Program-made: the position numbers and the translations under genes
Notes under the pieces: generated by a model
Told to the model about the DNA's origin: nothing
Databases searched by the model: none
Seen by the model: the letters and a program-made list of their open reading frames with translations, nothing else
Origin: a virus
Taxonomy: Duplodnaviria; Heunggongvirae; Uroviricota; Caudoviricetes
Reading direction: 5' to 3' (one strand)
DNA: 14,076 bases
Virus record (IMG/VR): IMGVR_UViG_2541047688_000003
Part shown: positions 1 to 14,076 of the stretch, one piece after another
Numbering within the stretch: position 1 is the first letter of the stretch
Layout: every line of letters starts with the position of its first letter

Positions 1-1143
1 CTATGCTGTTTTGATATCTACGATAATCCAGTCTTTACCACGATCATCATTGTATCGGTCGGTCATTTTTCTGGATTTATGACCTAACAACTTTTGCGTA
101 TCCAGACCCTGTTCCCGATATAACCGTTCTGACAGAGATCGCTGCTCATGAAATGTGGGCGCAGTTCCTGGCTCCCATTTTATGCCACATTTTTCCCTGG
201 CCTTTTTAAAAGCCGTTGTAAGAGTATTTGCAGACACCTGGTCTCCTCTGTTTGCTTGAGAGGTAGTGTGACGGTAATGGACCAGATATTTACTAACAAC
301 AGCATCCCTGCACTGAGATATAACTTCACGAAGGGTAATATTCAGAGCATCGCATTTCAGGTTAAGCGGAATAGCAAGTTTTGAACCGGTTTTTTCCTGA
401 GTAATGTGCAACATGTCGTCCCAGATATCAGAGAATTTCAAATTGCAGATATCGCCTAAACGTTGTCCAGTGACAAGAGCAAGTAGCATCCCGCATTTTA
501 AATAGGGCTGCCGTCTGCTTACGCTGTCAAATATTGCCTGCCATTCGGGCAGTGATAATCTTTGGCGGTTTACTCGATTTCGCGGTTGTTTTGTTGCCTG
601 CGCTGGGTTAAATCCTGGCGGAACATGTCCTGCGTGTTGTGCTTCTTTGAAGACGTCGATCAACACCATTCTCACGACTTGCGCCATCCTGTTATGACCT
701 TCAGCCTTTACAGCATCAATTATTTCGGCAATATCAAGTGCGGTAATATCCTTGAGGTGTTGCATTCCACAATGCTCACGGAAAAGACGAATGGGTTTGC
801 CTTTTTGCCGATAGGAGTTGGGTCTTAGTTCATTATGTTGCAGCCTGTCCTCCTGGATAGAAATATATTTATCAAGCCATTCTGTCACCGTAATGTCTGA
901 GCGCCTGCCTTTCATTCTTTCTAGACGCTCATTGACGCTTAATATTTGTCGGGTACGTTGTTCAGCAATAATGGTATTTGCTTCAGTAGCAACTTGTTTT
1001 GCTTCATTCTCATCAGTTCCTAAGCTATGAAAACGACCGGATAGTGGATGTTTGTATTGCCAATATACCTTTCCGGTTCGCTTATCTAATTTGCAATATA
1101 AATTGGGTATAGAGATTTTGTGAGATCGGGGTCTAGCAGCCAT
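1..1143 (-). CDS. int: Phage tyrosine integrase, lambda Int-like architecture (380 aa)
   Basis: Full ORF with ATG at 1141-1143 and TAG at 1-3. C-terminal catalytic region carries HxxR and LGHKSRKMTDRY (tyrosine nucleophile context). Overlapped at its 5' end by an excisionase-like gene, as in lambdoid phages. Sequence is not lambda Int itself. Confidence 0.9.
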   Translation of the reverse strand: MAARPRSHKISIPNLYCKLDKRTGKVYWQYKHPLSGRFHSLGTDENEAKQVATEANTIIAEQRTRQILSVNERLERMKGRRSDITVTEWLDKYISIQEDRLQHNELRPNSYRQKGKPIRLFREHCGMQHLKDITALDIAEIIDAVKAEGHNRMAQVVRMVLIDVFKEAQHAGHVPPGFNPAQATKQPRNRVNRQRLSLPEWQAIFDSVSRRQPYLKCGMLLALVTGQRLGDICNLKFSDIWDDMLHITQEKTGSKLAIPLNLKCDALNITLREVISQCRDAVVSKYLVHYRHTTSQANRGDQVSANTLTTAFKKAREKCGIKWEPGTAPTFHEQRSLSERLYREQGLDTQKLLGHKSRKMTDRYNDDRGKDWIIVDIKTA

Positions 1144-1369
1144 CAGCGATTATCCGTTGGAGTTTTGGGTTTGCGTTTATTGGGAGTTGCGGTTCTGCAA
1201 GCGTTCCTACAAAACGGGAATTTCGGTCAATCATCCAGTAGCGACCAACTTTTATAGCGGGTGGGGCCATCATTTTCCCTTGCGCGTATTTTTTCAGAAC
1301 TCGCTCACTTGGTGCTAAGTCCCCAAATTCTTCTTTAGCCCAGTCCTGTAAAGTGATTAGTCGAGACAT
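1133..1369 (-). CDS. xis: Excisionase-like small basic DNA-binding protein (78 aa)
   Basis: Strong RBS (GAGGAGG) 5 nt upstream of ATG at 1367-1369. Overlaps the int start by 11 nt. Motif APPAIKVGRYW resembles the lambda Xis PPPVKDGREY region. Confidence 0.75.
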   Translation of the reverse strand: MSRLITLQDWAKEEFGDLAPSERVLKKYAQGKMMAPPAIKVGRYWMIDRNSRFVGTLAEPQLPINANPKLQRIIADGC

Positions 1370-1508
1370 TTGTCCTCCTCTTAGCTGCTGAGGGAGTTTG
1401 TGACCGATATATCTGACATGATATTAAGCTCATGGCAGGTACATCTCTTGACTGGTCATAGAGATAAATTTAATGCTGAGAAATGCAGTATTGAATTTAT
1501 CAATTTTT

Positions 1509-1748
1509 CTATTTCCTGCGTATGGCACGTAACTTCTTAATGTGTTCTGCTGTTTCGATCTCTTCAGCTATCCGATCTGCGTCAGCTTTATTCACAGGTT
1601 CAAAGTCATGATTAAAGCGGAACATGCTGGCGATACATGTTCTGCCTTTTCGGATGTAGTGAACTTTGTTGTGAGTGGAACGCAGGATTTTGCAGGGAGT
1701 GCCGTGGTGGTCGACGTACCAGGTGTTAGGGTAAATCACTCTGAACAT
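1509..1748 (-). CDS. Hypothetical small phage protein (79 aa)
   Basis: ORF with ATG at 1746-1748, co-oriented and tightly packed in the leftward operon. Function not recognised. Confidence 0.5.
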   Translation of the reverse strand: MFRVIYPNTWYVDHHGTPCKILRSTHNKVHYIRKGRTCIASMFRFNHDFEPVNKADADRIAEEIETAEHIKKLRAIRRK

Positions 1749-1773
1749 TCTTGACCTTGTGTTGTGCGGATTG

Positions 1774-2058
1774 TTATTCAGTGCCGATATTTACCTTTAT
1801 CGCGTATACCTTTACCGGTTTATCACCGAAGTGCGGATGTGTGATTGTCTTCACTTCATATCCGTCATACGGAACATCAACTCTGCGGCTGGAATCGTCG
1901 CGCTTCGGATATCCCTTTGTGATAATCAGGCGGTCATGCTTACGGTTAACGAGGCGCTTTTTCCAGTAGTCATTACACAGGCGATACTCTTCCGTTTTCT
2001 CTCCGCGAATCATGGCATCGAAGTATTCACCTTTAACGGCAAGTTGCAGGTTAGCCAC
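1774..2058 (-). CDS. Hypothetical phage protein (about 94 aa, GTG start)
   Basis: GTG at 2056-2058 preceded by AAGGAG 6 nt upstream and located 2 nt after the upstream gene's stop. The longer ORF to 2142 would overlap the upstream gene by 92 nt. Confidence 0.5.
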   Translation of the reverse strand: MANLQLAVKGEYFDAMIRGEKTEEYRLCNDYWKKRLVNRKHDRLIITKGYPKRDDSSRRVDVPYDGYEVKTITHPHFGDKPVKVYAIKVNIGTE

Positions 2059-2791
2059 GGTTAACTCCTTGCTGTGTGGCGTCGAGTAATAAATCCCACA
2101 ACCGCTGAGAGCAATTTCCGCATGTACAGCGTTGACCCACAACGTTTATCGCGTTGCTGATTTCCGGCGTTACCTGTTTAGGAACCATAACCCAACCATC
2201 CGGAGTTACCGGAAGCGAGAACGGCAGCACATCTCTGTGAACAAGTTTTTGCTGTGACAGGTTATCCAGAACTTTCTGTACTGCTGCATCACCGAATACA
2301 CCAAGCGCATCTGCCATAACTCCTACAACCTGATAAGCCTCAGCGCATACCGTGGATAAACCATCCGGAATTACCGGAGAGTTGCCGGGTTCTTTAATGT
2401 GCAAGCGAGGCTCACCATCTTTTGGCTCAGGCCACTGGCGCTCCATGTTGATCTTCAATTTATCTTCCATAGCAACGGTAATTTCAGCATCGCTGATGCC
2501 AGCACGGCGCTGTGCATCCCACAACAGAAACTGCATATCAGCCCACTCGCTAAGATCGTCTGGTTCGGCTGCGGCTTCCAGTGCCTCTTTTGAGAGGTGT
2601 TTCAGTGGACCAATGGGGCCAACGCAGCCAAATGTGGAGTCAGACCATTTGGCATGCTCGTGGCGAATCTGTTCGCGTTCCAGTGATGCCAGTGCAATTC
2701 GTGCTAGTTCCATTTGTTCGCCACGAGTAAGCCCGTTTTCAAGCGGATTTTTAATGAACAATTCAATACGTTCTTTGGTAATAGTGGTCAT
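2051..2791 (-). CDS. Phage accessory protein (246 aa); N-terminal region recalled as DUF550/MazG-like nucleotide pyrophosphohydrolase-type, C-terminal module with PVxPDG motifs
   Basis: ATG at 2789-2791 with GAGGA RBS, ATGA overlap with the upstream gene's stop. Domain assignment is from memory of prophage protein families and is unverified. Confidence 0.7.
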   Translation of the reverse strand: MTTITKERIELFIKNPLENGLTRGEQMELARIALASLEREQIRHEHAKWSDSTFGCVGPIGPLKHLSKEALEAAAEPDDLSEWADMQFLLWDAQRRAGISDAEITVAMEDKLKINMERQWPEPKDGEPRLHIKEPGNSPVIPDGLSTVCAEAYQVVGVMADALGVFGDAAVQKVLDNLSQQKLVHRDVLPFSLPVTPDGWVMVPKQVTPEISNAINVVGQRCTCGNCSQRLWDLLLDATQQGVNRG

Positions 2792-2997
2792 GTGTTAATC
2801 CTCAAAACTTTATGCCCGGGCGCAAAAGTACGTGTTTTGTCTTTGCTTATTCGCCACCCGTCTTTACGGGCCTCTTTTGCACAACCAGACCATGACGTAC
2901 CGATATACTCACCGAAGTCTGGCACTGGATATACACCTTCCGTACACTGGCGACAATCACAATAGAGATGCATGGTGTAACTTGCGGCAATAGCCAT
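2788..2997 (-). CDS. Small Cys/His-rich putative zinc-binding protein (about 69 aa)
   Basis: Internal ATG at 2995-2997 sits 3 nt after the upstream gene's TGA with a purine-rich RBS. HLYCDCRQC and SWSGC motifs. Alternative start at 3039 would overlap the upstream gene by 41 nt. Confidence 0.5.
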   Translation of the reverse strand: MAIAASYTMHLYCDCRQCTEGVYPVPDFGEYIGTSWSGCAKEARKDGWRISKDKTRTFAPGHKVLRINT

Positions 2998-2998
2998 A

Positions 2999-3532
2999 TC
3001 ACTCTCTTTTTCCCTGAAGCATGGCAGCGTGGCAGGCATCCTCTACGCCCTTAACTGCATCTGCGCAGTAGTTATAGCGATTGCATTCCACTAACTTCTG
3101 CCTGAGATTTTCAATTGCTTGCGCGACATCAGCCTGTATTACAGGAACTGGCGGAACGGCTGTCTGCTGCTCTCGAACGTCATTAGTCGCTATCGGTTCT
3201 GCTGCCAACTGACTGGCATATTTGTTAATGGTAACGATAAGCTCTTGCTCAGCCTCATCCAGACAATCACCGATACCTCGCCTGTCGCCGTCAAAATCAT
3301 CGAAATCAGCACGAACTCTGGCAAATTTCAGGATTGCGGACAACACCTCACCAGGAATTACCGGAGAGTTGGTTGACGTTTCCGAAATTTCCCGAAAATT
3401 ATTGGTTGACGAATTCGCGTTTTCCCGAAAGTTTCCGGCATGAAGCATAGCCGCGCGGCAGGCGTTCCAGCCTCTCACCTCTGCAATAGCGGCAACAGCA
3501 TCGACCGCGTACATGCTAAGAGGGTTAGGCAT
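2999..3532 (-). CDS. Phage accessory protein with low-complexity in-frame tandem repeat (about 177 aa; start uncertain)
   Basis: Long minus-strand ORF. Candidate starts are ATG 3530-3532, GTG 3557-3559 and TTG 3605-3607 (the ORF-track start). Contains the NSPVIPGE motif shared with the neighbouring gene. Confidence 0.55.
   Translation of the reverse strand: MPNPLSMYAVDAVAAIAEVRGWNACRAAMLHAGNFRENANSSTNNFREISETSTNSPVIPGEVLSAILKFARVRADFDDFDGDRRGIGDCLDEAEQELIVTINKYASQLAAEPIATNDVREQQTAVPPVPVIQADVAQAIENLRQKLVECNRYNYCADAVKGVEDACHAAMLQGKRE
3371..3430 (-). repeat. Imperfect tandem direct repeat (about 30 nt, 2 copies), in-frame within a CDS
   Basis: ggttgacgtttccgaaatttcccgaaa followed by ttggttgacgaattcgcgttttcccgaaa. 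Encodes FRENANSSTNN / FREISETSTNS on the minus strand. Confidence 0.6.
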
Positions 3533-3549
3533 TGGTTTTTCTTCAGGTA

Positions 3550-3804
3550 CTACTGGCACTGGCTTGGCATATATAGCGGCTGAACATACCAACCCTTTGA
3601 TAACCAACTGTCAGCAATGTTTTTACTCCTCGTTATTGCCGGAATACCTAAGCCATTGTCTGAATGCAGCCATGCCACCGGATTCTCTTCCAGCGATGCC
3701 AGAGCAATTTCATAAGCCCGGCGCTCAACATTGTCTCGCACATCCAAACTGCTGATACGCTCTTTGATTTCTTTAATCAGTTCTTTGTCGGTAAAAGTGC
3801 TCAT
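3550..3804 (-). CDS. Hypothetical phage protein (84 aa) sharing an IALASLE module with the 246-aa protein
   Basis: ATG at 3802-3804 preceded by GGAG with a 7-nt spacer, 1 nt after the upstream TGA. The longer track ORF to 3825 overlaps the upstream gene. Confidence 0.6.
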   Translation of the reverse strand: MSTFTDKELIKEIKERISSLDVRDNVERRAYEIALASLEENPVAWLHSDNGLGIPAITRSKNIADSWLSKGWYVQPLYMPSQCQ

Positions 3805-3805
3805 A

Positions 3806-4570
3806 TCAATCTCCATTGGTATCAATGTTTACAGCCTGACAAGACTCTTTGAGCACCCAGTCAATAGCGTCTTTCCATGCCTCTGTTTCGACTGGTGGAT
3901 TTTCACGCTTAACCTGTTCATAGAAGCGCACTGCTTTAACCAGTCCTTCCGGTACTACTGGTGATGGCTGTTTAGCTTCTAAATCAGCAATTCTGTCAAC
4001 CACGGCATCGACAGCATCTGAAAAGCCGAACCAGTTGCTCCACTCCGGCTCATCCCCGGTTGCTGCAAAGTACATATCTGCTAAAGCAGATTCAGCATGG
4101 TCACGCTCGTTAATGAGTTGCTCTTCGCTTTTCTCCAGTTCAGCAATACGCTTACCCCCATCCGAGATAACACCTTCGTAATACTCACGCTGCTCGTTGA
4201 GTTTTGATTTTGTCTCCTCAAGCTCAACTCTCAGCTTCCCAACAGTAAGAGCAATATCCTCGTTCTCCTGGTCGCGGCGTTTTATGTATTGCTGGTTTCT
4301 TTCCCGTTCATCCAGCAGTGCCAGCACAGTAGCCGGATTGGCTGCGGCGATGAATTCAGCATTGGCCTGCTGTTCCATTTGGAAATCTTCATCGAAACCG
4401 CTTTCTGGATGCGCTCCTTCAATTCTGCAAATGGGAATATATCCAGCAACTTCACGATGAATTAGCGCATAATCACCATCAAATCGGCTCTCTCCATATT
4501 CGAGCGACCACTCACCACACGTTGCTTTTTCTGCCGCTTCACGCAGTGCCTGATAGTTAATTTCGCTCAC
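3806..4570 (-). CDS. Ead/Ea22-like protein (254 aa) with central coiled-coil-like region
   Basis: GTG start at 4568-4570 overlaps the upstream stop (GTGA) with GAGAGG RBS. N-terminus QALREAAEKAT...NAEFIAAANPATVLALLD matches my recollection of the Ead/Ea22-like family. Charged heptad-like middle region. Confidence 0.75.
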   Translation of the reverse strand: MSEINYQALREAAEKATCGEWSLEYGESRFDGDYALIHREVAGYIPICRIEGAHPESGFDEDFQMEQQANAEFIAAANPATVLALLDERERNQQYIKRRDQENEDIALTVGKLRVELEETKSKLNEQREYYEGVISDGGKRIAELEKSEEQLINERDHAESALADMYFAATGDEPEWSNWFGFSDAVDAVVDRIADLEAKQPSPVVPEGLVKAVRFYEQVKRENPPVETEAWKDAIDWVLKESCQAVNIDTNGD

Positions 4571-4788
4571 TTCGAACCTCTCTGTTTACTGATAAGCTCC
4601 AGATCCTCCTGGCAACTTGCACAAGTCCGACAACCCTGAACGACCAGGCGTCTTCGTTCATCTATGGGATCGCCACACTCACAACAATGAGTGGCGGATA
4701 TAGTCTGGTAGTTCAGACGACGCATTTTTATTGCTGTATTGCGCTGTAATTCTTCAATTTCTGATGCTGAATCAATGATGTCCGCCAT
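4567..4788 (-). CDS. TraR/DksA-family C4 zinc-finger protein (73 aa), lambda Orf73-like
   Basis: CCECGDPIDERRRLVVQGCRTCASC gives a CxxC...CxxC C4 finger with the conserved spacing of the TraR/DksA family. Size and position match the TraR homologue recalled in lambda's early-left operon. Confidence 0.75.
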   Translation of the reverse strand: MADIIDSASEIEELQRNTAIKMRRLNYQTISATHCCECGDPIDERRRLVVQGCRTCASCQEDLELISKQRGSK

Positions 4789-4837
4789 CTTTCATTAATC
4801 CCTGAATTGTTGGTTAATACGCTTGAGGGTGAATGCG

Positions 4838-4865
4838 AATAATAAAAAAGGAGCCTGTAGCTCCC
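4838..4865 (-). terminator. Candidate intrinsic terminator or attenuator inside the leftward operon
   Basis: On the minus strand: GGAGC-UACAG-GCUCC stem-loop (plus coordinates 4850-4864) followed by UUUUUUAUUAUU (4838-4849). Stem is short (5-6 bp). Confidence 0.35.
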
Positions 4866-4886
4866 TGATGATTTTGCTTTTCATGT

Positions 4887-5168
4887 TCACCGTTCCTTAA
4901 AGACGCCGTTTAACATGCCGATCGCCAGGCTTAAATGAGTCGGTGTGAATCCCATCAGCGTTACCGTTTCGCGGTGCTTCTTTAGTACGCTACGGCAAAT
5001 GTCATCGACGTTTTTATCCGGAAACTGCTGTCTGGCTTTTTTGATTTCAGAATTAGCCTGACGGGCAATGCTGCGAAGGGCGTTTTCTTGCTGAGGTGTC
5101 ACTGAACAAGCCCCATGTCGGCAAGCATAAGCACACAGAATATGAAGCCCGCTGCCAGAAAAATGCAT
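4887..5168 (-). CDS. Hypothetical phage protein (93 aa as drawn; true start uncertain)
   Basis: ORF with ATG at 5166-5168 but poor RBS. An internal GTG at 5100-5102 overlaps the stop of a 27-codon upstream ORF (see findings). Confidence 0.45.
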   Translation of the reverse strand: MHFSGSGLHILCAYACRHGACSVTPQQENALRSIARQANSEIKKARQQFPDKNVDDICRSVLKKHRETVTLMGFTPTHLSLAIGMLNGVFKER

Positions 5169-5178
5169 TCAGTGGTTG

Positions 5179-5370
5179 TCATACCTGGTCTCTCTCATCT
5201 GCTTCTGCTTTCGCCACCATCATTTCCAGCTTTTGTGAAAGGGATGTGGCTAACGTATGAAATTCTTCGTCTGTTTCTACTGGTATTGGCACAAACCTGA
5301 CTCCAATTTGAGCAAGGCTATGTGCCATCTCAATACTCGTTCTTAACTCAACAGGAGATGCTTTGTGCAT
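5179..5370 (-). CDS. orf63: Lambda Orf63-like protein (63 aa)
   Basis: 63-codon ORF immediately downstream of orf60a in the same order as recalled for lambda. Identity from memory, unverified. Confidence 0.6.
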   Translation of the reverse strand: MHKASPVELRTSIEMAHSLAQIGVRFVPIPVETDEEFHTLATSLSQKLEMMVAKAEADERDQV

Positions 5371-5525
5371 ACCGCCTCCCGTTTATTATTTATCTTCTCA
5401 GCCAGCCGCTGTGCTTTCAGTGGATTTCTGATAACAGAAAGGCCGGGAAATACCCAGCCTCGCTTTGTAACGGAGTAGACGAAAGTGATCGCGCCTACCC
5501 GGATATTATCGTGAGGATGCGTCAT
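5343..5525 (-). CDS. orf60a: Lambda Orf60a-like protein (60 aa)
   Basis: ATG at 5523-5525 overlaps the exo stop (ATGA). Sequence [29 protein letters not shown] matches my recollection of lambda orf60a. Confidence 0.6.
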
Positions 5526-6202
5526 CGCCATTGCTCCCCAAATACAAAACTAATTTCAGCCAGTGCCTCGTCCATTTTTTCGATGAACTCCGGCACCATC
5601 TCGTCAAAACTCGCCATGTACTTTTCATCCCGCTCAACCACGACATAATGCAGTCCTTCACGCTTCATACGCGGGTCATAGTTGGCAAAGTACCAGGCAT
5701 CTTTTCGCGTCACCCACATGCTGTACTGCACCTGGGCCATGTAAGCCGATTTTATGGCCTCGAAACCACCGAGCCGGAACTTCATGAAATCCCGGGAGGT
5801 AAACGGGCATTTCAGCTCAAGGCCGTTGCCGTCACTGCATAAACCATCGGGAGAGCAGGCGGTGCGCATACTTTCGTCGCGATAGATGATCGGGGATTCA
5901 GTAACATTCACGCCGGAAGTAAACTCAAACAGGGCTCTGGCGTCGTTCTCGTACTGTTTTCCCCAAGCCAGCGCCTTAGCGTTAACTTCCGGAGCCACAC
6001 CGGTGCAAACCTCAGCAAGCAGGGTGTGGAAGTAGGACATTTTCATGTCAGGCCATTTCTTTCCGGAGCGGGGTTTTGCTATCACGTTGTGAACTTCTGA
6101 AGCGGTGATGACGCCGAGCCGTAATTTGTGCCATGCATCATCCCCCTGTTCGACAGCTCTCACGTCGATCCCGGTACGCTGCAGGATAATGTCCGGTGTC
6201 AT
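5522..6202 (-). CDS. exo: Lambda exonuclease (Red alpha), 226 aa
   Basis: Translation [40 protein letters not shown]...GFVFGEQWR is essentially lambda Exo by recall. ATGA overlap with bet as in lambda. Confidence 0.97.
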
Positions 6203-6984
6203 GCTGCCACCTTCTGCTCAGTGGCTTTCTGTTTCAGGAATCCAAGAGCTTTCACTGCTTCGGCCTGTGTCAGTTCTGACGATGCGCGAATGTCGCGGCG
6301 AAATATCTGGGAACAGAGCGGCAATAAGTCGTCATCCCATGTTTTATCCAGGGCGATCAGCAGAGTGTTAATCTCCTGCATGGTTTCATCGTTAACCGGA
6401 GTGATGTCGCGTTCCGGCTGACGTTCTGCAGTGTATGCGGTATTTTCGACAATGCGCTCGGCTTCATCCTTGTCATAGATACCAGCAAATCCGAAGGCGA
6501 GACGGGCACACTGAATCATGGCTTTATGCCGTAACATCCGTTTGGGATGCGACTGCCACGGCCCCGTGATTTCTCTGCCTTCGCGGGTTTTGAATGGTTC
6601 GCGGCGGCATTCATCCATCCACTCGGTAACGCAGATCGGATGATTGCGGTCTTTGCGGTAAATCCGGCATGTACATGATTCATTGTCCTGCTCAAAGTCC
6701 ATACCATCAAACTGCTGGTTTTCATTGATGATGCGGGACCAGCCATCAACGCCCACCACCGGAACAATGCCGTTCTGCTTATCAGGGAAGGCGTAAATTT
6801 CTTTCGTCCACGGATTAAGGCCGTACTGGTTGGCGACGATCAACAATGCGATGAACTGCGCATCGCTGGCATCACCTTTAAATGCCGTCTGGCGAAGAGT
6901 GGTGATCAGTTCCTGTGGGTCGACAGAATCCATGCCGACACGTTCAGCCAGCTTCCCTGCCAGCGTTGCGAGTGCTGTACTCAT
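6199..6984 (-). CDS. bet: Lambda Bet (Red beta single-strand annealing protein), 261 aa
   Basis: Translation [44 protein letters not shown]... is essentially lambda Bet by recall. Confidence 0.97.
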
Positions 6985-6989
6985 CCGTT

Positions 6990-7286
6990 TTATACCTCTG
7001 AATCAATATCAGCCTGATGGTGAGCAATGGTTTCAACTATGTACCGGATGTGTTCTGCCATGCGCTCCTGAAACTCAACATCGTCATCAAACGCACGGGT
7101 AATGGCTTTTTTGCTGGCCCCGTGGCGTTGTAAATGATCGATGCATAGCGATTCAAACAGGTGCTGGGGCAGGCCTTTTTCCATGTCGTCTGCCAGTTCT
7201 GCCTCTTTCTCTTCACGGGCGATCTGCTGGTAGTGACGCGCCCAGCTCTGAGCCTCAAGACGATCCTGAATGTAATAAGCGTTCAT
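6990..7286 (-). CDS. gam: Gam, short form (GamS-type RecBCD inhibitor), 98 aa
   Basis: [21 protein letters not shown]...[10 protein letters not shown] matches the C-terminal 98 aa of lambda Gam. Own RBS CAGGAG upstream. The N-terminal extension coding sequence is present but out of frame (see findings). Confidence 0.93.
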
Positions 7287-7361
7287 GGCTGAACTCCTGA
7301 AAATGGCTGTGAAAATATCGCCCGCGAAATGCCAGGCTGATTAGGAAAACAGGAAAGGGGG

Positions 7362-7505
7362 TTAGTGAATGCTTTTGCTTGATCTCAGTTTCAGTATTAA
7401 TATCCATTTTTTATAAGCGTCGACGGCCTCACGAAACATCTTTTCATCGCCAATAAAAGTGGCGATAGTGAATTTAGTCTGGATAGCCATAATTGTTTGA
7501 TCCAT
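7362..7505 (-). CDS. kil: Kil (host cell-division inhibitor), 47 aa
   Basis: Internal ATG at 7503-7505 with [55 protein letters not shown] matches lambda Kil by recall. Overlaps the cIII 3' end as in lambda. Confidence 0.85.
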
Positions 7506-7638
7506 TTTTTGGGACTCCTGGCTGATTAAGTATGTCGATAAGGCGTTTCCATCCGTCACGTAATTTACGGGTGATTCGTTCAAGTAAAGATTCGGAAGGG
7601 CAGCCAGCAACAGGCCACCCTGCAATGGCATATTGCAT
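7474..7638 (-). CDS. cIII: CIII (FtsH/HflB protease inhibitor), 54 aa
   Basis: ATG at 7636-7638 with AAGGAG RBS 6 nt upstream. [54 protein letters not shown] matches lambda CIII by recall. Confidence 0.85.
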   Translation of the reverse strand: MQYAIAGWPVAGCPSESLLERITRKLRDGWKRLIDILNQPGVPKNGSNNYGYPD

Positions 7639-7752
7639 GGTGTGCTCCTTATTTATACATAACGAAAAACGCCTCGAGTTGAAGTGGTTTACTGAATTTG
7701 GCCACCTGAACAGAGGTGATATGCTCACCTCAGAACAACACAGGTGCCATAA

Positions 7753-7795
7753 TGTCAACGCCACGATGTTTGACCGTTATTTGCCATTTTCATGC
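7753..7795. repeat. IS21 terminal inverted repeat (istB-proximal end)
   Basis: tgtcaacgccacgatgtttgaccgttatttgccatttt aligns, with one gap, to the reverse complement of the other end. Confidence 0.7.
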
Positions 7796-7812
7796 CCGCT
7801 AAGATACTTTCG

Positions 7813-9782
<1,970 letters not shown>

Positions 9783-9840
9783 GTTGATGTCCTTTCTGGT
9801 GTGAGAACCTTAAGGAAACAACATGTTGGGTGGAGCGGAC

Positions 9841-9883
9841 AATCCAAATGGTGAATTACCGTCTTATATCACTGGCGCTGACA
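9841..9883. repeat. IS21 terminal inverted repeat (istA-proximal end)
   Basis: Reverse complement reads tgtcagcgccagtgatataagacggtaattcaccattt, matching the opposite terminus. Confidence 0.7.
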
Positions 9884-10026
9884 GCTGGCAGTTGTATGAG
9901 CGCGGAGAGCTTGTTGATGTGCTGTGGGGGGAACTGGAATGGTCTTCCCCGACAGATGACGATGAGCTGCCGGAAGTCACCGGACCTGCGTGGATAGTCG
10001 ACAATGTGGCGCATTATGGCGGATGA
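9884..10026 (+). pseudogene. 3' remnant of a plus-strand gene truncated by the IS21 insertion or rearrangement
   Basis: Open frame runs from the IS boundary to TGA at 10024-10026 (...SWQLYERGELVDVLWGELEWSSPTDDDELPEVTGPAWIVDNVAHYGG) and is followed by a terminator. The frame upstream lies within IS DNA. Confidence 0.35.
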
Positions 10027-10038
10027 AGTATGACGGAG

Positions 10039-10067
10039 ACGGGCGGGCAACCGCCCGTTTCTTTTCC
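10039..10067 (+). terminator. Intrinsic terminator
   Basis: ACGGGCGG-GCAA-CCGCCCGT 8-bp GC-rich stem with tetraloop, followed by TTCTTTTCC. Confidence 0.6.
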
Positions 10068-10127
10068 GGTAAAGGATGTCGCCGTGCTCCTCTTTTTACT
10101 GCGCCGGCTGACGCGGCGCGGCATAAA

Positions 10128-10351
10128 CGCTGCCTGTGGTCAGTGTCCCGCGTCCGGTGGGCACGGGACGGGCGCTTTTACCGCTCCCGGCTGGCGTCGG
10201 TGACAGTGTACGCCAGCCTGTCGCCCTTTTCTGATGAACGCCCTTCAAGCCGCTTTCGCGGCATAGCCTTGCCGTCAGAAAGACGACGGCTGCGGTATTC
10301 CACGGTCGGCCTGACCCGTTACCGGACGCGGTGAACAGCCCACAGGCAGCG
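10128..10351 (+). promoter_or_regulatory. Long imperfect inverted repeat; candidate single-strand promoter (Frpo/ssi-like) or other structured regulatory element
   Basis: Arm 10128-10157 (cgctgcctgtggtcagtgtcccgcgtccgg) is about 25/30 complementary to arm 10322-10351. Arms are about 165 nt apart in a GC-rich noncoding region upstream of the methyltransferase gene. Confidence 0.4.
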
Positions 10352-10409
10352 GGGAACGGGCACCACAGGGGTGCCCTCCCGGTGCCCTCTGTAAGAGAAG
10401 GAGTTTTGT

Positions 10410-11093
10410 ATGTCCCGTTTTGTCCTCGGTAACTGCATCGATGTTATGGCCCGTATTCCTGATAACGCCATTGATTTCATACTGACTGACCCGCCGTACC
10501 TCGTCGGTTTCCGTGACCGTTCCGGGCGCACCATTGCCGGTGATGTTAATGATGACTGGCTGCAACCTGCCAGCAATGAGATGTACCGCGTACTCAAAAA
10601 AGACGCGCTGATGGTCAGCTTCTACGGCTGGAACCGTGTCGATCGCTTTATGGCCGCCTGGAAACGCGCCGGATTCAGCGTGGCAGGGCACCTCGTGTTC
10701 ACCAAAAACTACACATCCAAATCTGCGTATGTCGCGTACCGTCACGAATGCGCTTACATCCTGGCAAAGGGCAGTCCGGCCCGGCCCCGTAACCCTCTGC
10801 CGGATGTGCTGGGCTGGAAATATTCAGGCAATCGTCATCACCCGACGGAAAAGCCCGTTACCAGCCTGCAACCACTGATTGAGAGCTTCACACATCCGAA
10901 CGCGATTGTGCTGGACCCGTTTGCAGGCAGCGGCTCAACCTGCGTCGCTGCCCTCCAGTCCGGACGCCGGTATATCGGTATCGAGCTGCTTGAACAGTAT
11001 CACCGTGCCGGACAGCAACGACTGGCCGCCGTGCAACGGGCCATGCAGCAGGGGGCCGCGAATGATAACTGGTTTGAACCGGAGGCTGCGTAA
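10410..11093 (+). CDS. Orphan DNA amino-methyltransferase (DPPY motif, beta-class N6-adenine/N4-cytosine), 227 aa
   Basis: AAGGAG RBS 7 nt upstream. Catalytic motif TDPPYL near the N-terminus and SAM-binding motif DPFAGSGST near the C-terminus. No restriction endonuclease partner is visible in the window. Confidence 0.9.
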   Translation: MSRFVLGNCIDVMARIPDNAIDFILTDPPYLVGFRDRSGRTIAGDVNDDWLQPASNEMYRVLKKDALMVSFYGWNRVDRFMAAWKRAGFSVAGHLVFTKNYTSKSAYVAYRHECAYILAKGSPARPRNPLPDVLGWKYSGNRHHPTEKPVTSLQPLIESFTHPNAIVLDPFAGSGSTCVAALQSGRRYIGIELLEQYHRAGQQRLAAVQRAMQQGAANDNWFEPEAA

Positions 11094-11315
11094 ATGAACT
11101 ATGCCGGACACGAAAAACTTCGCGCCGACGTGGCGGAGGTGGCCAACACCATGTGTGACCTTCGGGCCAGGCTGAACGATATGGAGCATCGCTGTCGCTT
11201 TGATTCCGATGTGCTTGTTGAACGCCTGACACGCCAGACGCTGTATCGCGCCAATCGCCTGTTCATGGAGGCGTATACCGAAATTCTGGAACTGGATTCC
11301 TGCTTCAAAGATTGA
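11094..11315 (+). CDS. Hypothetical protein (73 aa)
   Basis: ATG immediately after the methyltransferase stop codon, GGAGG 10 nt upstream. Co-oriented in the same gene block. Confidence 0.6.
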   Translation: MNYAGHEKLRADVAEVANTMCDLRARLNDMEHRCRFDSDVLVERLTRQTLYRANRLFMEAYTEILELDSCFKD

Positions 11316-11328
11316 GAAGGAGACGAGA

Positions 11329-11763
11329 ATGTACGGAACATGCGAAACGCTATGCCGGAAGCTGGCAGCAAAGTATTCGGGAGACACGCCACTGATGCTG
11401 GTTATCTGGTCCCCGGAAGAAATTCAGGCCCTCTCTGACGGAATGGATATTGCCCTGACCGATCATGAAATCAGGACTGTCCTGGCGCGCCTGGAGGACA
11501 TCCCGGAAGACCAGCGGACTGAATCCGGTATTTCTTCCGGCGTGGCGATGGAGATCATCAATAACGTGAGCGAAAACCGCCAGGTGACTGTCCCTGCTGA
11601 ACTGCTGGCGTCCCTGATTCAGACCGCTGAACAGGCATTGTGGAAACGTGAATGGGCCGCCTGGGATCATGGCCTCGCCGTCCCGGAATGCGTCACCCGC
11701 CGTCAGGCGGTGGTTAATCAGGTCCGCATCCTGCTGAAAAACAACACACACGAAAACGACTGA
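11329..11763 (+). CDS. Plasmid leading-region protein, DUF1380-like (144 aa)
   Basis: AAGGAG RBS. Shares the motif R(Q/H)VTVPA(E/V)(L/M)L and a near-identical start region with the 13466-13888 ORF. Family name from recall, unverified. Confidence 0.75.
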   Translation: MYGTCETLCRKLAAKYSGDTPLMLVIWSPEEIQALSDGMDIALTDHEIRTVLARLEDIPEDQRTESGISSGVAMEIINNVSENRQVTVPAELLASLIQTAEQALWKREWAAWDHGLAVPECVTRRQAVVNQVRILLKNNTHEND

Positions 11764-11766
11764 TGT

Positions 11767-11790
11767 TATCGCCGCCTCCGGGCGGCGATA
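11767..11790 (+). other. Perfect hairpin without U-tract between genes
   Basis: TATCGCCGCC-TCCG-GGCGGCGATA (10-bp stem, 4-nt loop) immediately after the stop at 11761-11763. No T-run follows. Confidence 0.5.
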
Positions 11791-11807
11791 CAGGGAGTTC
11801 ATGAATT

Positions 11808-12578
11808 ATGAATGAAATGCTGAATGCACTGATTTATCGCCACGCCAGCAACCTGTTGCTGGCGCAGGGCTGGCCGGAAGAGACGGATGTTGACCAGCGT
11901 AACCCGAAGTATCCGGGCTGGATCAGCATTTACGTGCGGCTGGATGCGCCCCGGCTGGCGACGTTACTTATCAAGCGTCACGGCGGCGTACTGCCGCCGC
12001 TCCTGGCCTCTGCCATTCAGAAACTGACCGGAACCGGAGCGGAACTTGTTCTGTCCGGCAGTCAGTGGCAGTCGCTGCCGGTACTTCCGGCAGACGGAAC
12101 GCAGGTGTCTTTCCCGTATGCCGGTGAGTGGCTGGCAGAGGACGAAATCAGGGCCGTTCTTGGTGCGGTACGCGATGCAGTATGCAGTGTCAGTTACCAG
12201 GTGGCAGAAGATGCGCGGCGTATCCGTGCGGCGCTGACCACCACCGGTCAGACGTTGCTGACCCGCCAGACGCGCCGCTTTCGCCTGGTGGTGAAGGAAA
12301 GCGATCACCCCTGCTGGCTCGATGAAGACGACGAAAACCTGCCCGTGGTGCTCGATGCCATCCTGAACCGGGGCGCTCGTTTTTCGTCGGTGGAAATGTA
12401 TCTGGTCAGTGAGTGTGTGGAGCATATCCTGTCCAGTGGGCTGGCCTGCGATATGCTGCGTATACCGGATGAACCGCCCCGCCGCTGGTTTGACCGTGGT
12501 GTTCTGCGGGAGGTGGTCCGGGAAGCCCGGAACGAAATCCGCAGCATGGCGGATGCCCTGGCAAAAATCCGGAAATGA
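11808..12578 (+). CDS. Uncharacterised protein (256 aa)
   Basis: Long plus-strand ORF with AGGGAG upstream. No recognisable motif. Embedded between antirestriction-type genes. Confidence 0.75.
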
Positions 12579-12585
12579 TGACGCT

Positions 12586-12611
12586 GGCGGGGAAAAATCT
12601 CCGCCTTTTCC
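12586..12611 (+). terminator. Intrinsic terminator
   Basis: GGCGGGG-AAAAAT-CTCCGCC stem (one G-U pair) followed by TTTTCC, 8 nt after the stop codon. Confidence 0.5.
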
Positions 12612-12720
12612 AGTCGGTCCCCGGAAAGAGCAAAAGGATGTCGCCGCAGGCTCCTCTTTACCCGGCCATGTGGGGCATGGCCTTGTGGGTTTTCAGTTAT
12701 GTGGCCTCAGCGTCGTGTGC

Positions 12721-12956
12721 GGGCTGTGCCGTGCCTCCATCGTAGCCGGGCTTCTGCGGGCGGGTTGCAAGGTAAGGTGAACCGCTGCGGTCACCCGGTC
12801 CCTCCTTCCCGTCTGCCGTGATTTTCCGGTCGTTCACCCGCTCAGATTTCGCGGTCTCACCCTCCAACTCCCGTCAGCCGTGCGCGTCAGGCTGCGGCTT
12901 CCCTTGCGCCCTTGCAACCCTGCAGGCCCGGCAAAGATGGAGGCACGGCACCGCCC
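12721..12956 (+). promoter_or_regulatory. Second long imperfect inverted repeat (about 50-nt arms); candidate single-strand promoter or structured regulatory element
   Basis: Arm 12721-12772 pairs with arm 12910-12956, including a perfect 14-nt core gccgtgcctccatc / gatggaggcacggc. Lies upstream of klcA. Confidence 0.4.
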
Positions 12957-12993
12957 GGTGTCGCGGAATATGTGAACAACGGAGGAAAACATC

Positions 12994-13419
12994 ATGCAAT
13001 ATGCGAAACCTGTCACTCTGAATGTTGAAGAGTGCGACCGTCTCTCCTTTCTGCCTTACCTGTTTGGCCTGGATTTTCTGTATGCCGAGGCATCTGTGTA
13101 CACGCTGGCGAAAAAAATGATGCCGGAATATGAAGGCGGATTCTGGCACTTCATCCGCCTGCCGGACGGTGGCGGTTACATGATGCCGGATGGCGACCGT
13201 TTTCATCTGGTTAACGGTGAAAACTGGTTTGACCGTACCGTGAGTGCTGATGCCGCAGGCATCATCCTTACCTCCCTTGTGATTAACCGCCAGTTGTGGC
13301 TGTACCACGACAGCGGGGATGCAGGGTTGACACACCTGTACAGGATGCGCGATGCGCAGTTGTGGAGCCACATCGAATTTCACCCCGAATGCAACGCGAT
13401 TTACGCGGCACTTGACTGA
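12994..13419 (+). CDS. klcA: ArdB/KlcA-family antirestriction protein (141 aa)
   Basis: GGAGG RBS. Motifs [30 protein letters not shown] and [12 protein letters not shown] parallel ArdB/KlcA proteins as recalled. Confidence 0.85.
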
Positions 13420-13428
13420 TTAACGGAC

Positions 13429-13447
13429 GGGGCGGCAATGCCGCCCC
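13429..13447 (+). other. GC hairpin without U-tract upstream of the next RBS
   Basis: GGGGCGGC-AAT-GCCGCCCC 8-bp perfect stem, followed directly by AAAGGAGACGAGAAC and ATG at 13466. Confidence 0.45.
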
Positions 13448-13465
13448 TGTAAAGGAGACGAGAAC

Positions 13466-13888
13466 ATGTACTGTACTGTTAAAGAAATCATCCGCGATGT
13501 ACTGGATACAGACGTGCCGGACAGTGAATGCGTTTTTGCCGTGGTGCTGACCCGTGGGGATGTGCGTCACATAGCCCAGGACTGGAGTCTGACAGACGAT
13601 GAGCTGGAAACCGTCATGCAGCGGCTGGACGATGCTTTTGTATATGGCGCATGTGACAGAGTTGTTTCCGATATTGTAAATGAACTGATGGAAGAAAAGC
13701 GCGCCAGCCGTCATGTGACAGTCCCGGCGGTGATGCTGGAAAAAGTGATGGCGCTGGCAGGCAGTGAAATGAAGCGCCTGTATGCCGTCGGGAGTGAGAA
13801 CGGGGGCGACGGTGACGCATTCGTCAGGGAGGAACGCGAAGCAATGGACGTTGTGTTACAGGCGCTGGACGGGGAGCACATGTCATGA
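13466..13888 (+). CDS. DUF1380-like paralogue (140 aa)
   Basis: Same RBS and start context (aaggagacgagaacatgtac) as the 11329 gene. Shared RHVTVPAVML motif. Confidence 0.75.
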   Translation: MYCTVKEIIRDVLDTDVPDSECVFAVVLTRGDVRHIAQDWSLTDDELETVMQRLDDAFVYGACDRVVSDIVNELMEEKRASRHVTVPAVMLEKVMALAGSEMKRLYAVGSENGGDGDAFVREEREAMDVVLQALDGEHMS

Positions 13889-14076
13889 ATATCAGCACAG
13901 AAACCCGCGAAATTCTGCGTAATTACAGGGCCGTGATTAATGCGCGGCGTCGTGAAATGGGGCAGAAACCGCTCACCACCGCGCAGATTGTTGATGAAAT
14001 CTGCGATTTTGTGGCGAATCAGCAGGCGGTTTTCCTGGGCGGTCACTACATCTTACAGGGCAGCAGAAACAGGTGA
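13885..14076 (+). CDS. Hypothetical small protein (63 aa)
   Basis: ATGA overlap with the preceding gene. Stop codon TGA at 14074-14076, the last three bases of the window. Confidence 0.55.
   Translation: MNISTETREILRNYRAVINARRREMGQKPLTTAQIVDEICDFVANQQAVFLGGHYILQGSRNR

Follow-up and report, generated by a model that had tools for sequence, protein, structure and literature searches.

The terminator-distal genes of phage lambda need N for their expression, with a leak of ~10% from pL (PMC7084815). Phage recombination genes can be stranded in defective prophages, as found for recET in the Rac prophage, whose activation by sbcA was demonstrated genetically, and upstream mutations are known to switch on silent prophage recombinases (PMC3945230). 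IS elements are another possible source of transcription. A −35 sequence was described in the right terminal inverted repeat (TIR) of IS21; the promoter of a single IS21 copy is weak, is strong in tandem copies only and is occluded by IstA (PMC10122671). Elements of the IS21 family activate neighbouring genes, and fusion promoters using the −35 of the right inverted repeat (IRR) require a −10 in the flanking DNA (PMC9330008). IS21 of the IncP plasmid R68.45 is also an agent of replicon fusion by the tandem-IS21/cointegrase route.

The locus analysed here lies in a 14,076 nt stretch of viral DNA (IMG/VR record IMGVR_UViG_2541047688_000003), whose full length is hereafter called the window. Our preferred reading, which we hold to be probable, is a joint of three mobile elements (a prophage arm, ISEc52 and a plasmid-borne IS21) whose early-left phage genes are nearly silent and were stranded very recently.

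The Prophage Early-Left Block

Positions 1–7638 carry on the minus strand a block ordered int-xis...exo-bet-gam-kil-cIII, as defined by ORFs and Pfam matches. The block is intact, as the initial annotation had it, because window positions 1–7684 match two phage records, those of the infectious phage ev017 (NC_049948) and of PhiR57_1, at 100% identity. Identity to lambda is 97.3% between window 4530–7684 and lambda 30355–33508. The integrase gene int (1..1143, 380 aa; Pfam Arm-DNA-bind_1 and Phage_integrase) is of the lambda/phage-21 type. The same int adjoins icd in FDAARGOS_1255 and ATCC 25922, which places the relatives of this block beside icd. Note that the window ends at the int stop codon, with the attL/icd side out of view. 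In coordinate order, the excisionase gene xis (1133..1369; Pfam Exc) precedes the accessory “b-region” genes (1509..5531), assigned by ORFs, Pfam and the annotation of identical DNA, which code for DUF4222, ASCH, dATP/dGTP pyrophosphohydrolase, Ea22-like, TraR/DksA, DUF1382 and DUF1317 proteins. The recombination genes are exo (5522..6202), encoding the lambda exonuclease of the YqaJ family, bet (6199..6984), encoding a RecT-family annealase, both identified by Pfam, and gam (6990..7286, 98 aa; Pfam Gam, 1.4e-63). They are joined by kil (7362..7505, 47 aa), coding for the FtsZ-inhibitor peptide, and cIII (7474..7638, 54 aa), supported by their translations and by Pfam Lambda_Kil and Lambda_CIII, respectively. 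All these genes are on the minus strand. The kil gene is 100% identical to that of a live phage and has no inactivating change. The mRNA thermoregulator controlling cIII translation is complete (7593..7651, minus strand; Rfam RF01804, 88.5 bits, model positions 1–59 of 59).

Gene order and strand, the cIII thermoregulator and terminator-like hairpins are thus shared with the pL operons of lambda and ev017. The difference lies upstream of cIII. In ev017 this region reads ea10-ral-sieB-N-...-cI, with N ~1.6 kb upstream of cIII, whereas ea10, ral and sieB are missing there in the window, and pL, oL, nutL and N are absent from its 14,076 nt. Upstream of cIII are only an ISEc52 stub, IS21 and plasmid DNA, and ISEc52 has disrupted the hairpin preceding cIII. 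The region near xis was searched for a CII-dependent pI-type box (TTGC-N6-TTGC); the single match is inside exo and was rejected, as the motif occurs at chance frequency.

The ISEc52 Stub Upstream of cIII

The prophage sequence breaks at 7679/7680, where the left end of ISEc52 (IS3 family) starts, so that 41 nt of it remain in front of the cIII ATG. The stub (7680..7752, plus strand) consists of the left inverted repeat, TGAAGTGG..., and the leader to the orfA ATG (7752–7754), and matches without a difference the full-length ISEc52 copies (1250 bp) of L001, L003 and L004. The complete element, with both inverted repeats and the transposase, is not present: the first 73–75 nt are retained and IS21 sits in the stub at the orfA ATG. 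The initial annotation attributed to IS21 the replacement of pL, N and the immunity region. This attribution has to be revised: the cut was made by an ISEc52 insertion or rearrangement, and IS21 came with the plasmid DNA described below.

Of 5426 complete E. coli genomes, a single one, that of ECC-1470 (NZ_CP010344), shares the joint between cIII and ISEc52. Its DLP12-like prophage has the joint at the same nucleotide, is 100% identical over window 7493–7754 and has its immunity region deleted. Unlike the window, it bears a complete 1250-bp ISEc52, has neither IS21 nor plasmid DNA, occupies another site (tRNA-Arg) and diverges to the left of window position 7493. An ATCC 25922 match to 7685–7754 was rejected as an instance of this joint; it is a separate ISEc52 copy within that prophage that BLAST had merged.

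IS21 and the Junction with Plasmid DNA

A complete IS21 of 2131 bp (7753..9883, minus strand) was identified by its ends, its inverted repeats and an identical copy in pUTI89. The right inverted repeat, TGTCAACGCC, begins at 7753 and the left one, TGTCAGCGCC (reverse complement), at 9883. These terminal repeats are imperfect and begin with TGTCA (left, TGTCAGCGCCA; right, TGTCAACGCCA). The element has the adjacent istA and istB genes of its family, assigned by Pfam: istA (8610..9782, 390 aa; rve and Mu-transpos_C_2) codes for the DDE transposase and istB (7813..8610/8613; IstB_IS21, 2.5e-90; stop codon TAA at 7815–7813) for the AAA+ helper ATPase. Both are on the minus strand and point into cIII, in agreement with the initial annotation.

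The flanks of IS21 are mismatched (ATAA at 7749–7752, GCTG at 9884–9887) with no target duplication. The identical copy in pUTI89 is inside a DUF1281 gene and bounded by a 4-bp GCTG duplication, of which the window retains the left-end GCTG only. The copy in the window does not represent a simple insertion. In MMC-J-0020, the related plasmid has its IS21 elsewhere, in umuC, which indicates that the element is mobile in the pUTI89-type lineage. DNA beyond IS21 (9884..14076, plus strand) is plasmid, neither chromosome nor prophage: it is F-plasmid leading-region DNA of the pUTI89 type, found uninterrupted and at 100% identity in pUTI89 and in over 60 related plasmids. Its genes, supported by Pfam, comprise the DUF1281 gene (3′ part) and those for an N6/N4 DNA methylase (10410–11093), a DUF1380 protein (11329–11763) and an antirestriction protein (12994–13419). 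Together with IS21, the whole segment 7753–14076 is 100% identical and contiguous in pUTI89-type F plasmids. An origin of the high-GC right half from IncP/RP4 plasmids, the classical home of IS21, was rejected because it matches pUTI89-type IncF DNA.

Since plasmid identity starts at 7753 and GCTG is found on one side only, the window holds either the joint of a plasmid–prophage fusion or two sequences that assembly connected via IS21. IS21 is bounded by its native donor flank at one end and by target DNA at the other, the arrangement expected of a cointegrate. The likeness to IS21 of R68.45 extends to istA-istB, the length of 2131 bp, the TGTCA termini, the right-end TTGACA, the 4-bp duplication on simple insertion (seen in the pUTI89 copy) and the layout expected of one cointegrate joint, with the native flank at the left end and foreign DNA at the right. 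In contrast to R68.45, a single joint is in view here; the second IS21 copy predicted for a cointegrate, with its target duplication, would lie outside the 14-kb window. Recombination between two IS21 copies would produce the same flank picture as cointegrate formation. Megablast searches of complete E. coli genomes and PLSDB plasmids with the whole window and with segments 7550–7950, 7450–8050 and 7560–7752 returned no record spanning the ISEc52/IS21 joint. An exact 45-mer across it had zero matches in genome and metagenome contigs, and exact look-up of two joint-spanning ORFs gave no match.

Transcription Signals Around cIII

The gap between istB and cIII is 174 nt long. Promoters were searched with a tool scan and a relaxed scan (at least 8/12 matches, spacers of 15–19 nt), consensus approaches that miss promoters of weak or non-canonical type. 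On the minus strand, neither a consensus terminator nor a consensus promoter was found between the istB stop codon and the cIII ATG. This bears out the initial view that no strong terminator separates the istB stop (7813) from cIII, and the gap showed no independent promoter either. The 7-bp hairpin without a U-tract pointed out at 7714–7732 is real (stem 7713–7731, −11.2 kcal/mol, no T-run) and belongs to the ISEc52 stub. No C-rich, G-poor Rho-loading stretch is obvious in the gap, where C is roughly equal to G. A transcript leaving istB would enter cIII, because the two genes are on the same strand and the gap between them has no such terminator or promoter.

Promoter signals that could feed this transcript are poor. 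No σ70-like site with at least 9/12 matches was found on the minus strand anywhere in IS21 or the joint. The sole match of the relaxed scan (8/12 at 7828–7801) is at chance level and was dismissed as a hybrid or independent promoter. The right terminus of IS21 carries the outward-facing −35 hexamer TTGACA (7753..7758, minus strand, reading 7758–7753), identified by sequence and by its description in the literature (PMC10122671). An outward −35 at the right end of the IS, facing a same-strand downstream gene, is also the arrangement of ISKpn7 (IS21 family) upstream of blaKPC. In contrast to that hybrid promoter, the required −10 at a distance of 16–18 nt is missing here in either scan (the hexamers are GTTCTG, TTCTGA and TCTGAG), so that one of the two halves that define a fusion promoter, the second, is lacking.

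Several terminator-like hairpins lie on the minus strand within the block. Upstream of cIII, a hairpin with a T-run (7661..7686), presumably lambda tL2b, is a remnant: its left arm was replaced by the ISEc52 end and its stem is weakened from −8.5 to −2.3 kcal/mol. A weak hairpin between kil and gam (7310..7337, stem 7337–7320; 5 bp, −6.9 kcal/mol, then GATATTTTCA) is homologous to lambda ~33136–33163, presumably tL2c. Just after exo, a hairpin of 9 bp (5429..5461, stem 5461–5439; −15.6 kcal/mol) has a stem identical to lambda ~31255–31283, presumably tL3. The lambda GenBank record (J02459) annotates no terminator features. A further hairpin (4838..4866, stem 4866–4848) has an 8-bp stem in the scan, followed by TTTTATTATT, and seven pairs in the RNAfold MFE structure (−9.7 kcal/mol). 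The hairpins at 7337–7320, 5461–5439 and 4866–4848 are conserved with lambda, and the first two, each with a T-run, are putative terminators of the tL2/tL3 type.

Proposed Origin of the Joint and Expected Expression

The following order of events would account for this anatomy. ISEc52 would have severed the left arm (int to cIII) of a lambdoid prophage resembling ev017, leaving 41 nt in front of the cIII ATG, taking away ea10, ral, sieB, N, nutL, pL/oL and the repressor region on that side and breaking the first terminator hairpin. The right end of an IS21 on a pUTI89-type F plasmid would then have become linked to the orfA ATG of ISEc52, with the plasmid flank kept at the left end of IS21, either by IS21 replicon fusion (tandem-IS21/cointegrase) or by recombination between two IS21 copies. 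Deprived of their own promoter, operator, nut site and N, the early-left genes would be entered solely by read-through from the weak single-IS21 promoter. This RNA would run through the ISEc52 stub and past the crippled hairpin, which may permit trace-level translation of cIII and kil. Without N antitermination most transcripts would halt at the terminator homologues before gam-bet-exo and again before xis-int.

The physical link between plasmid and prophage is seen in a single sequence, and its creation by assembly is unlikely, if still a serious possibility. A free pUTI89-like plasmid and a chromosomal IS21 located in ISEc52 beside cIII might have been joined through their identical 2.1-kb IS21; the cIII-ISEc52-IS21 joint would then stay real and the plasmid DNA at 9884–14076 would be unlinked to it. 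The switch of context does fall somewhere within a perfect 2131-bp repeat, strains such as FDAARGOS_1255 (CP069447, CP069448) have this prophage as well as an independent pUTI89-like plasmid, and the combined arrangement was seen in no other record searched. However, the chromosomal IS21-in-ISEc52 copy that is needed was likewise not observed in complete genomes, and IS21 is classically known to fuse replicons. Linkage could also be real and carried by a plasmid, F-prime-like or derived from a cointegrate, that gained the prophage left arm and ISEc52 stub by IS21-mediated fusion and imprecise resolution. The mismatched flanks are equally compatible with this, and some records of the plasmid collection have lambdoid exo-bet-gam segments. 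It is nevertheless quite improbable: no plasmid record searched has the block at 80% coverage or more, or has the joint, and the best “plasmid” matches are of megabase size and look like mislabelled chromosomes.

The initial annotation proposed that IS21 read-through could drive Red and Kil. Its geometry stands, and expression of cIII, kil and Red, constitutive or under IS control, from istAB read-through or an IS21-derived hybrid promoter is in line with the crippled native hairpin, the −35 at the extreme end of IS21 and the activation of neighbouring genes by this family (PMC9330008). If so, a natural hyper-recombination or filamentation phenotype would result, analogous to the sbcA activation of recET in Rac, where stranded phage recombination genes also need a new upstream source of transcription; here, unlike in Rac, activation is conjecture and the sequence signals favour weak expression. 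We consider it distinctly unlikely. The terminal −35 has no −10, that strand of IS21 has no site of at least 9/12, the single-copy promoter is weak and occluded by IstA (PMC10122671), and intact kil fits little or no toxic expression, or else a very recent event. Constitutive Red expression is judged unlikely because of this weak promoter, the absence of nutL and N, and the lambda-homologous hairpins retained before gam and after exo; strong read-through from IS21 is unlikely as well.

We thus favour the stranded, nearly silent block: judging from its sequence, there is most likely hardly any expression of the genes for recombination and killing, with cIII and kil expected to be expressed at trace level at most. 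As a counterpoint to silence, the first terminator is crippled, the tL2c-like hairpin is weak (5 bp, −6.9 kcal/mol) and the gap has no obvious features of a site for Rho loading; even weak read-through might yield measurable Kil or Red activity.

Biological Significance

All event kinds invoked (IS-truncated prophages, IS21 replicon fusion and IS read-through) are well known, and the locus is an ordinary mobile-element scar. Only demonstrated expression would give it more than a small practical importance, and the sequence evidence favours a mostly silent block. The most far-reaching reading, highly improbable in our view, combines a real joint, in which a conjugative virulence plasmid of the pUTI89 type is integrated Hfr-like via IS21 in a defective prophage beside icd, with weak IS21 read-through past the broken first terminator that gives a natural isolate low constitutive Kil, cIII and some Red. 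This would be a wild “sbcA-like” strain with the plasmid leading region and oriT beside recombination genes. If the linkage is real, the locus would be a natural case in which IS21 fused a prophage with a virulence plasmid of ExPEC; it could mobilise nearby chromosomal DNA and could leave a perfect Red/kil module stranded where neither the repressor nor N controls it. Remnants of this kind serve as a reservoir with which incoming lambdoid phages can recombine.

Organization of the Phage Gene Block

Judged from sequence comparison, the window is a prophage arm truncated by ISEc52 and joined via IS21 to DNA of pUTI89-type (IncF) plasmids. The initial annotation, which described a lambda-type early-left operon decapitated by IS21, holds for the gene block, its strand and the gap between istB and cIII, but not for direct contact between IS21 and phage DNA, because an ISEc52 stub lies between them. 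ORF coordinates and matches to the expected Pfam families place all the phage genes that it named on the minus strand: int (1–1143), xis (1133–1369), exo (5522–6202), bet (6199–6984), gam (6990–7286), kil (7362–7505) and cIII (7474–7638). A run of accessory genes on the same strand occupies the interval between xis and exo, and a complete cIII thermoregulator (Rfam) is found at 7593–7651. This gene block is part of the lambda early-left module, although pL/oL, N and nutL, the control features that define that operon, are missing from the window. Over positions 1–7684 the window shows 100% identity to ev017 (NC_049948) and PhiR57_1, both phage records, as well as to the icd-linked prophages of ATCC 25922 and FDAARGOS_1255, while the segment 4530–7684 has 97.3% identity to lambda 30355–33508. 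These identities mean that the block is intact, as had been proposed, and show no decay.

On the identical DNA of ATCC 25922 and FDAARGOS_1255, RefSeq annotates the minus-strand segments 2051–2791 and 3353–3804 as partial or frameshifted pseudogenes. A whole 246-aa DUF550/pyrophosphohydrolase gene is annotated at 2051–2791 in the ev017 record; the discrepancy is a disagreement of annotation, not a sequence difference. The interval that separates xis from the DUF4222 gene, on the upstream side of xis, contains an AT-rich 16-bp inverted repeat with a T-run after it (1463–1501, plus strand). Near its attachment end, the intact relative ev017 carries the sitABCD iron/manganese transporter genes (1–2806 of its locus); fitness cargo is therefore carried by this phage family.

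Truncation Upstream of cIII

Base-by-base comparison sets the last phage base at 7679. The next 73 nt (7680–7752) come from ISEc52, a 1250-bp IS3-family element, and comprise its left inverted repeat (TGAAGTGG...) and its leader; it is this stub, not IS21 as initially claimed, that adjoins the phage DNA. The ATG of ISEc52 orfA is found at 7752–7754, IS21 being inserted exactly at this start codon; the rest of the element, not in the stub, begins ATGAAAAAAAG... The order upstream of cIII in ev017 is ea10, ral, sieB, N, two more genes and the repressor, none of which is in the window. In intact relatives and in lambda, cIII is preceded by a hairpin and T-run (ACGCTTC-ACTC-GAGGCGT TTTTT) whose left arm is replaced here by the ISEc52 end, lowering the stem stability from about −8.5 to −2.3 kcal/mol.

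Among 5426 complete E. coli genomes, a single one, that of strain ECC-1470, has an identical cIII-ISEc52 joint; there ISEc52 is complete and without target duplication. Positions 8944–9205 of the ECC-1470 locus correspond to 7493–7754 of the window, with the same joint nucleotide, but the prophage is another one, DLP12-like and located at tRNA-Arg. The shared joint could mean that the terminator hairpin contains a hot spot for insertion, or that prophages have exchanged DNA.

The cIII frame is open upstream through the stub to a GTG within the IS21 right end (7474–7764, minus strand, 96 aa), making a putative N-terminally extended CIII formally possible. On the plus strand, 7698–7725 contains TTGGCC-16-TATGCT (8/12, TG-extended), which is probably the native promoter of ISEc52. 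It is directed into the right end of IS21, in antisense orientation to istB, and could oppose read-through from IS21.

IS21 and the Plasmid Joint

The 2131-bp IS21 (7753–9883; inverted repeats TGTCAACGCCA and TGTCAGCGCCA) encodes istA (8610–9782) and istB (7813–8610/8613). Like pUTI89 itself, over 60 related IncF plasmids carry the segment 7753–14,076 contiguously and with 100% identity. The pUTI89 copy is a simple insertion within a DUF1281 gene, flanked by a 4-bp GCTG duplication. The window element matches IS21 in gene content, ends and behaviour, but its flanks are not those of a simple insertion: GCTG is kept at the left end (9884–9887) whereas the right end abuts ATAA from ISEc52 (7749–7752). 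It therefore represents one joint of a plasmid–prophage rearrangement. This could be an IS21 replicon fusion (an IS21 cointegrate should have two joints, of which one is present), recombination of one IS21 copy with another, or a join made in assembly via the repeat. Searches for the combined joint found it neither in PLSDB or complete E. coli genomes nor in metagenome contigs, one-per-species genomes or a gene-position index.

In the related MMC-J-0020 plasmid the same IS21 is found in umuC (4005–6135 of its locus) with DUF1281 intact; IS21 is therefore mobile in the pUTI89-type lineage. Its right-end flank is also ATAA there, by coincidence.

Potential for Transcription from IS21

The idea that IS21 read-through expresses the operon finds partial support in the geometry, but what it claims about function is unlikely. 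IS21 and cIII are on one strand, and scans of the 174-nt gap between the istB stop (7815–7813) and the cIII ATG (7638) detected neither a consensus terminator nor a promoter-like site, in agreement with the view that no strong terminator separates the two genes. The hairpin noticed there is real (7713–7731, −11.2 kcal/mol, no T-run) but belongs to the ISEc52 leader. The geometry thus allows read-through into cIII.

The source of transcription appears poor. IS21 has a −35 sequence in its right end and a −10 sequence in its left end (PMC10122671), so a single copy has only a weak promoter; promoter activity is strong only in tandem copies and is occluded by IstA binding (PMC10122671). No promoter-like site of at least 9/12 on the cIII-facing strand was found anywhere in IS21 by scanning. 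For a terminal −35 to form part of a hybrid promoter, the flanking DNA must supply the −10 (PMC9330008). Facing the terminal TTGACA (7758–7753), the flank at 16–18 nt reads GTTCTG, TTCTGA or TCTGAG; on these hexamers, the hybrid promoter model fails for want of a −10.

Three lambda-conserved terminator-like hairpins are retained: a weak one in the kil-gam interval (7337–7320, −6.9 kcal/mol), which we take to be tL2c, one after exo (5461–5439, −15.6 kcal/mol), presumably tL3, and one with a long T-run (4866–4848, −9.7 kcal/mol). In lambda, genes beyond the terminators depend on N, and only a minority of transcripts get past otherwise (PMC7084815). Strong expression is disfavoured because the source is weak, the flank has no −10, and N and nutL are missing while the hairpins remain. 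We would predict at most trace expression of cIII and kil, less of the Red genes and essentially none of xis and int. In function, the read-through model most resembles the activation by sbcA of recET, silent genes of Rac (PMC3945230), but here activation is only conjectural.

The joint is a fresh instance of well-known kinds of events, and its general interest would be low unless plasmid integration or expression of Red or Kil were demonstrated by experiment.
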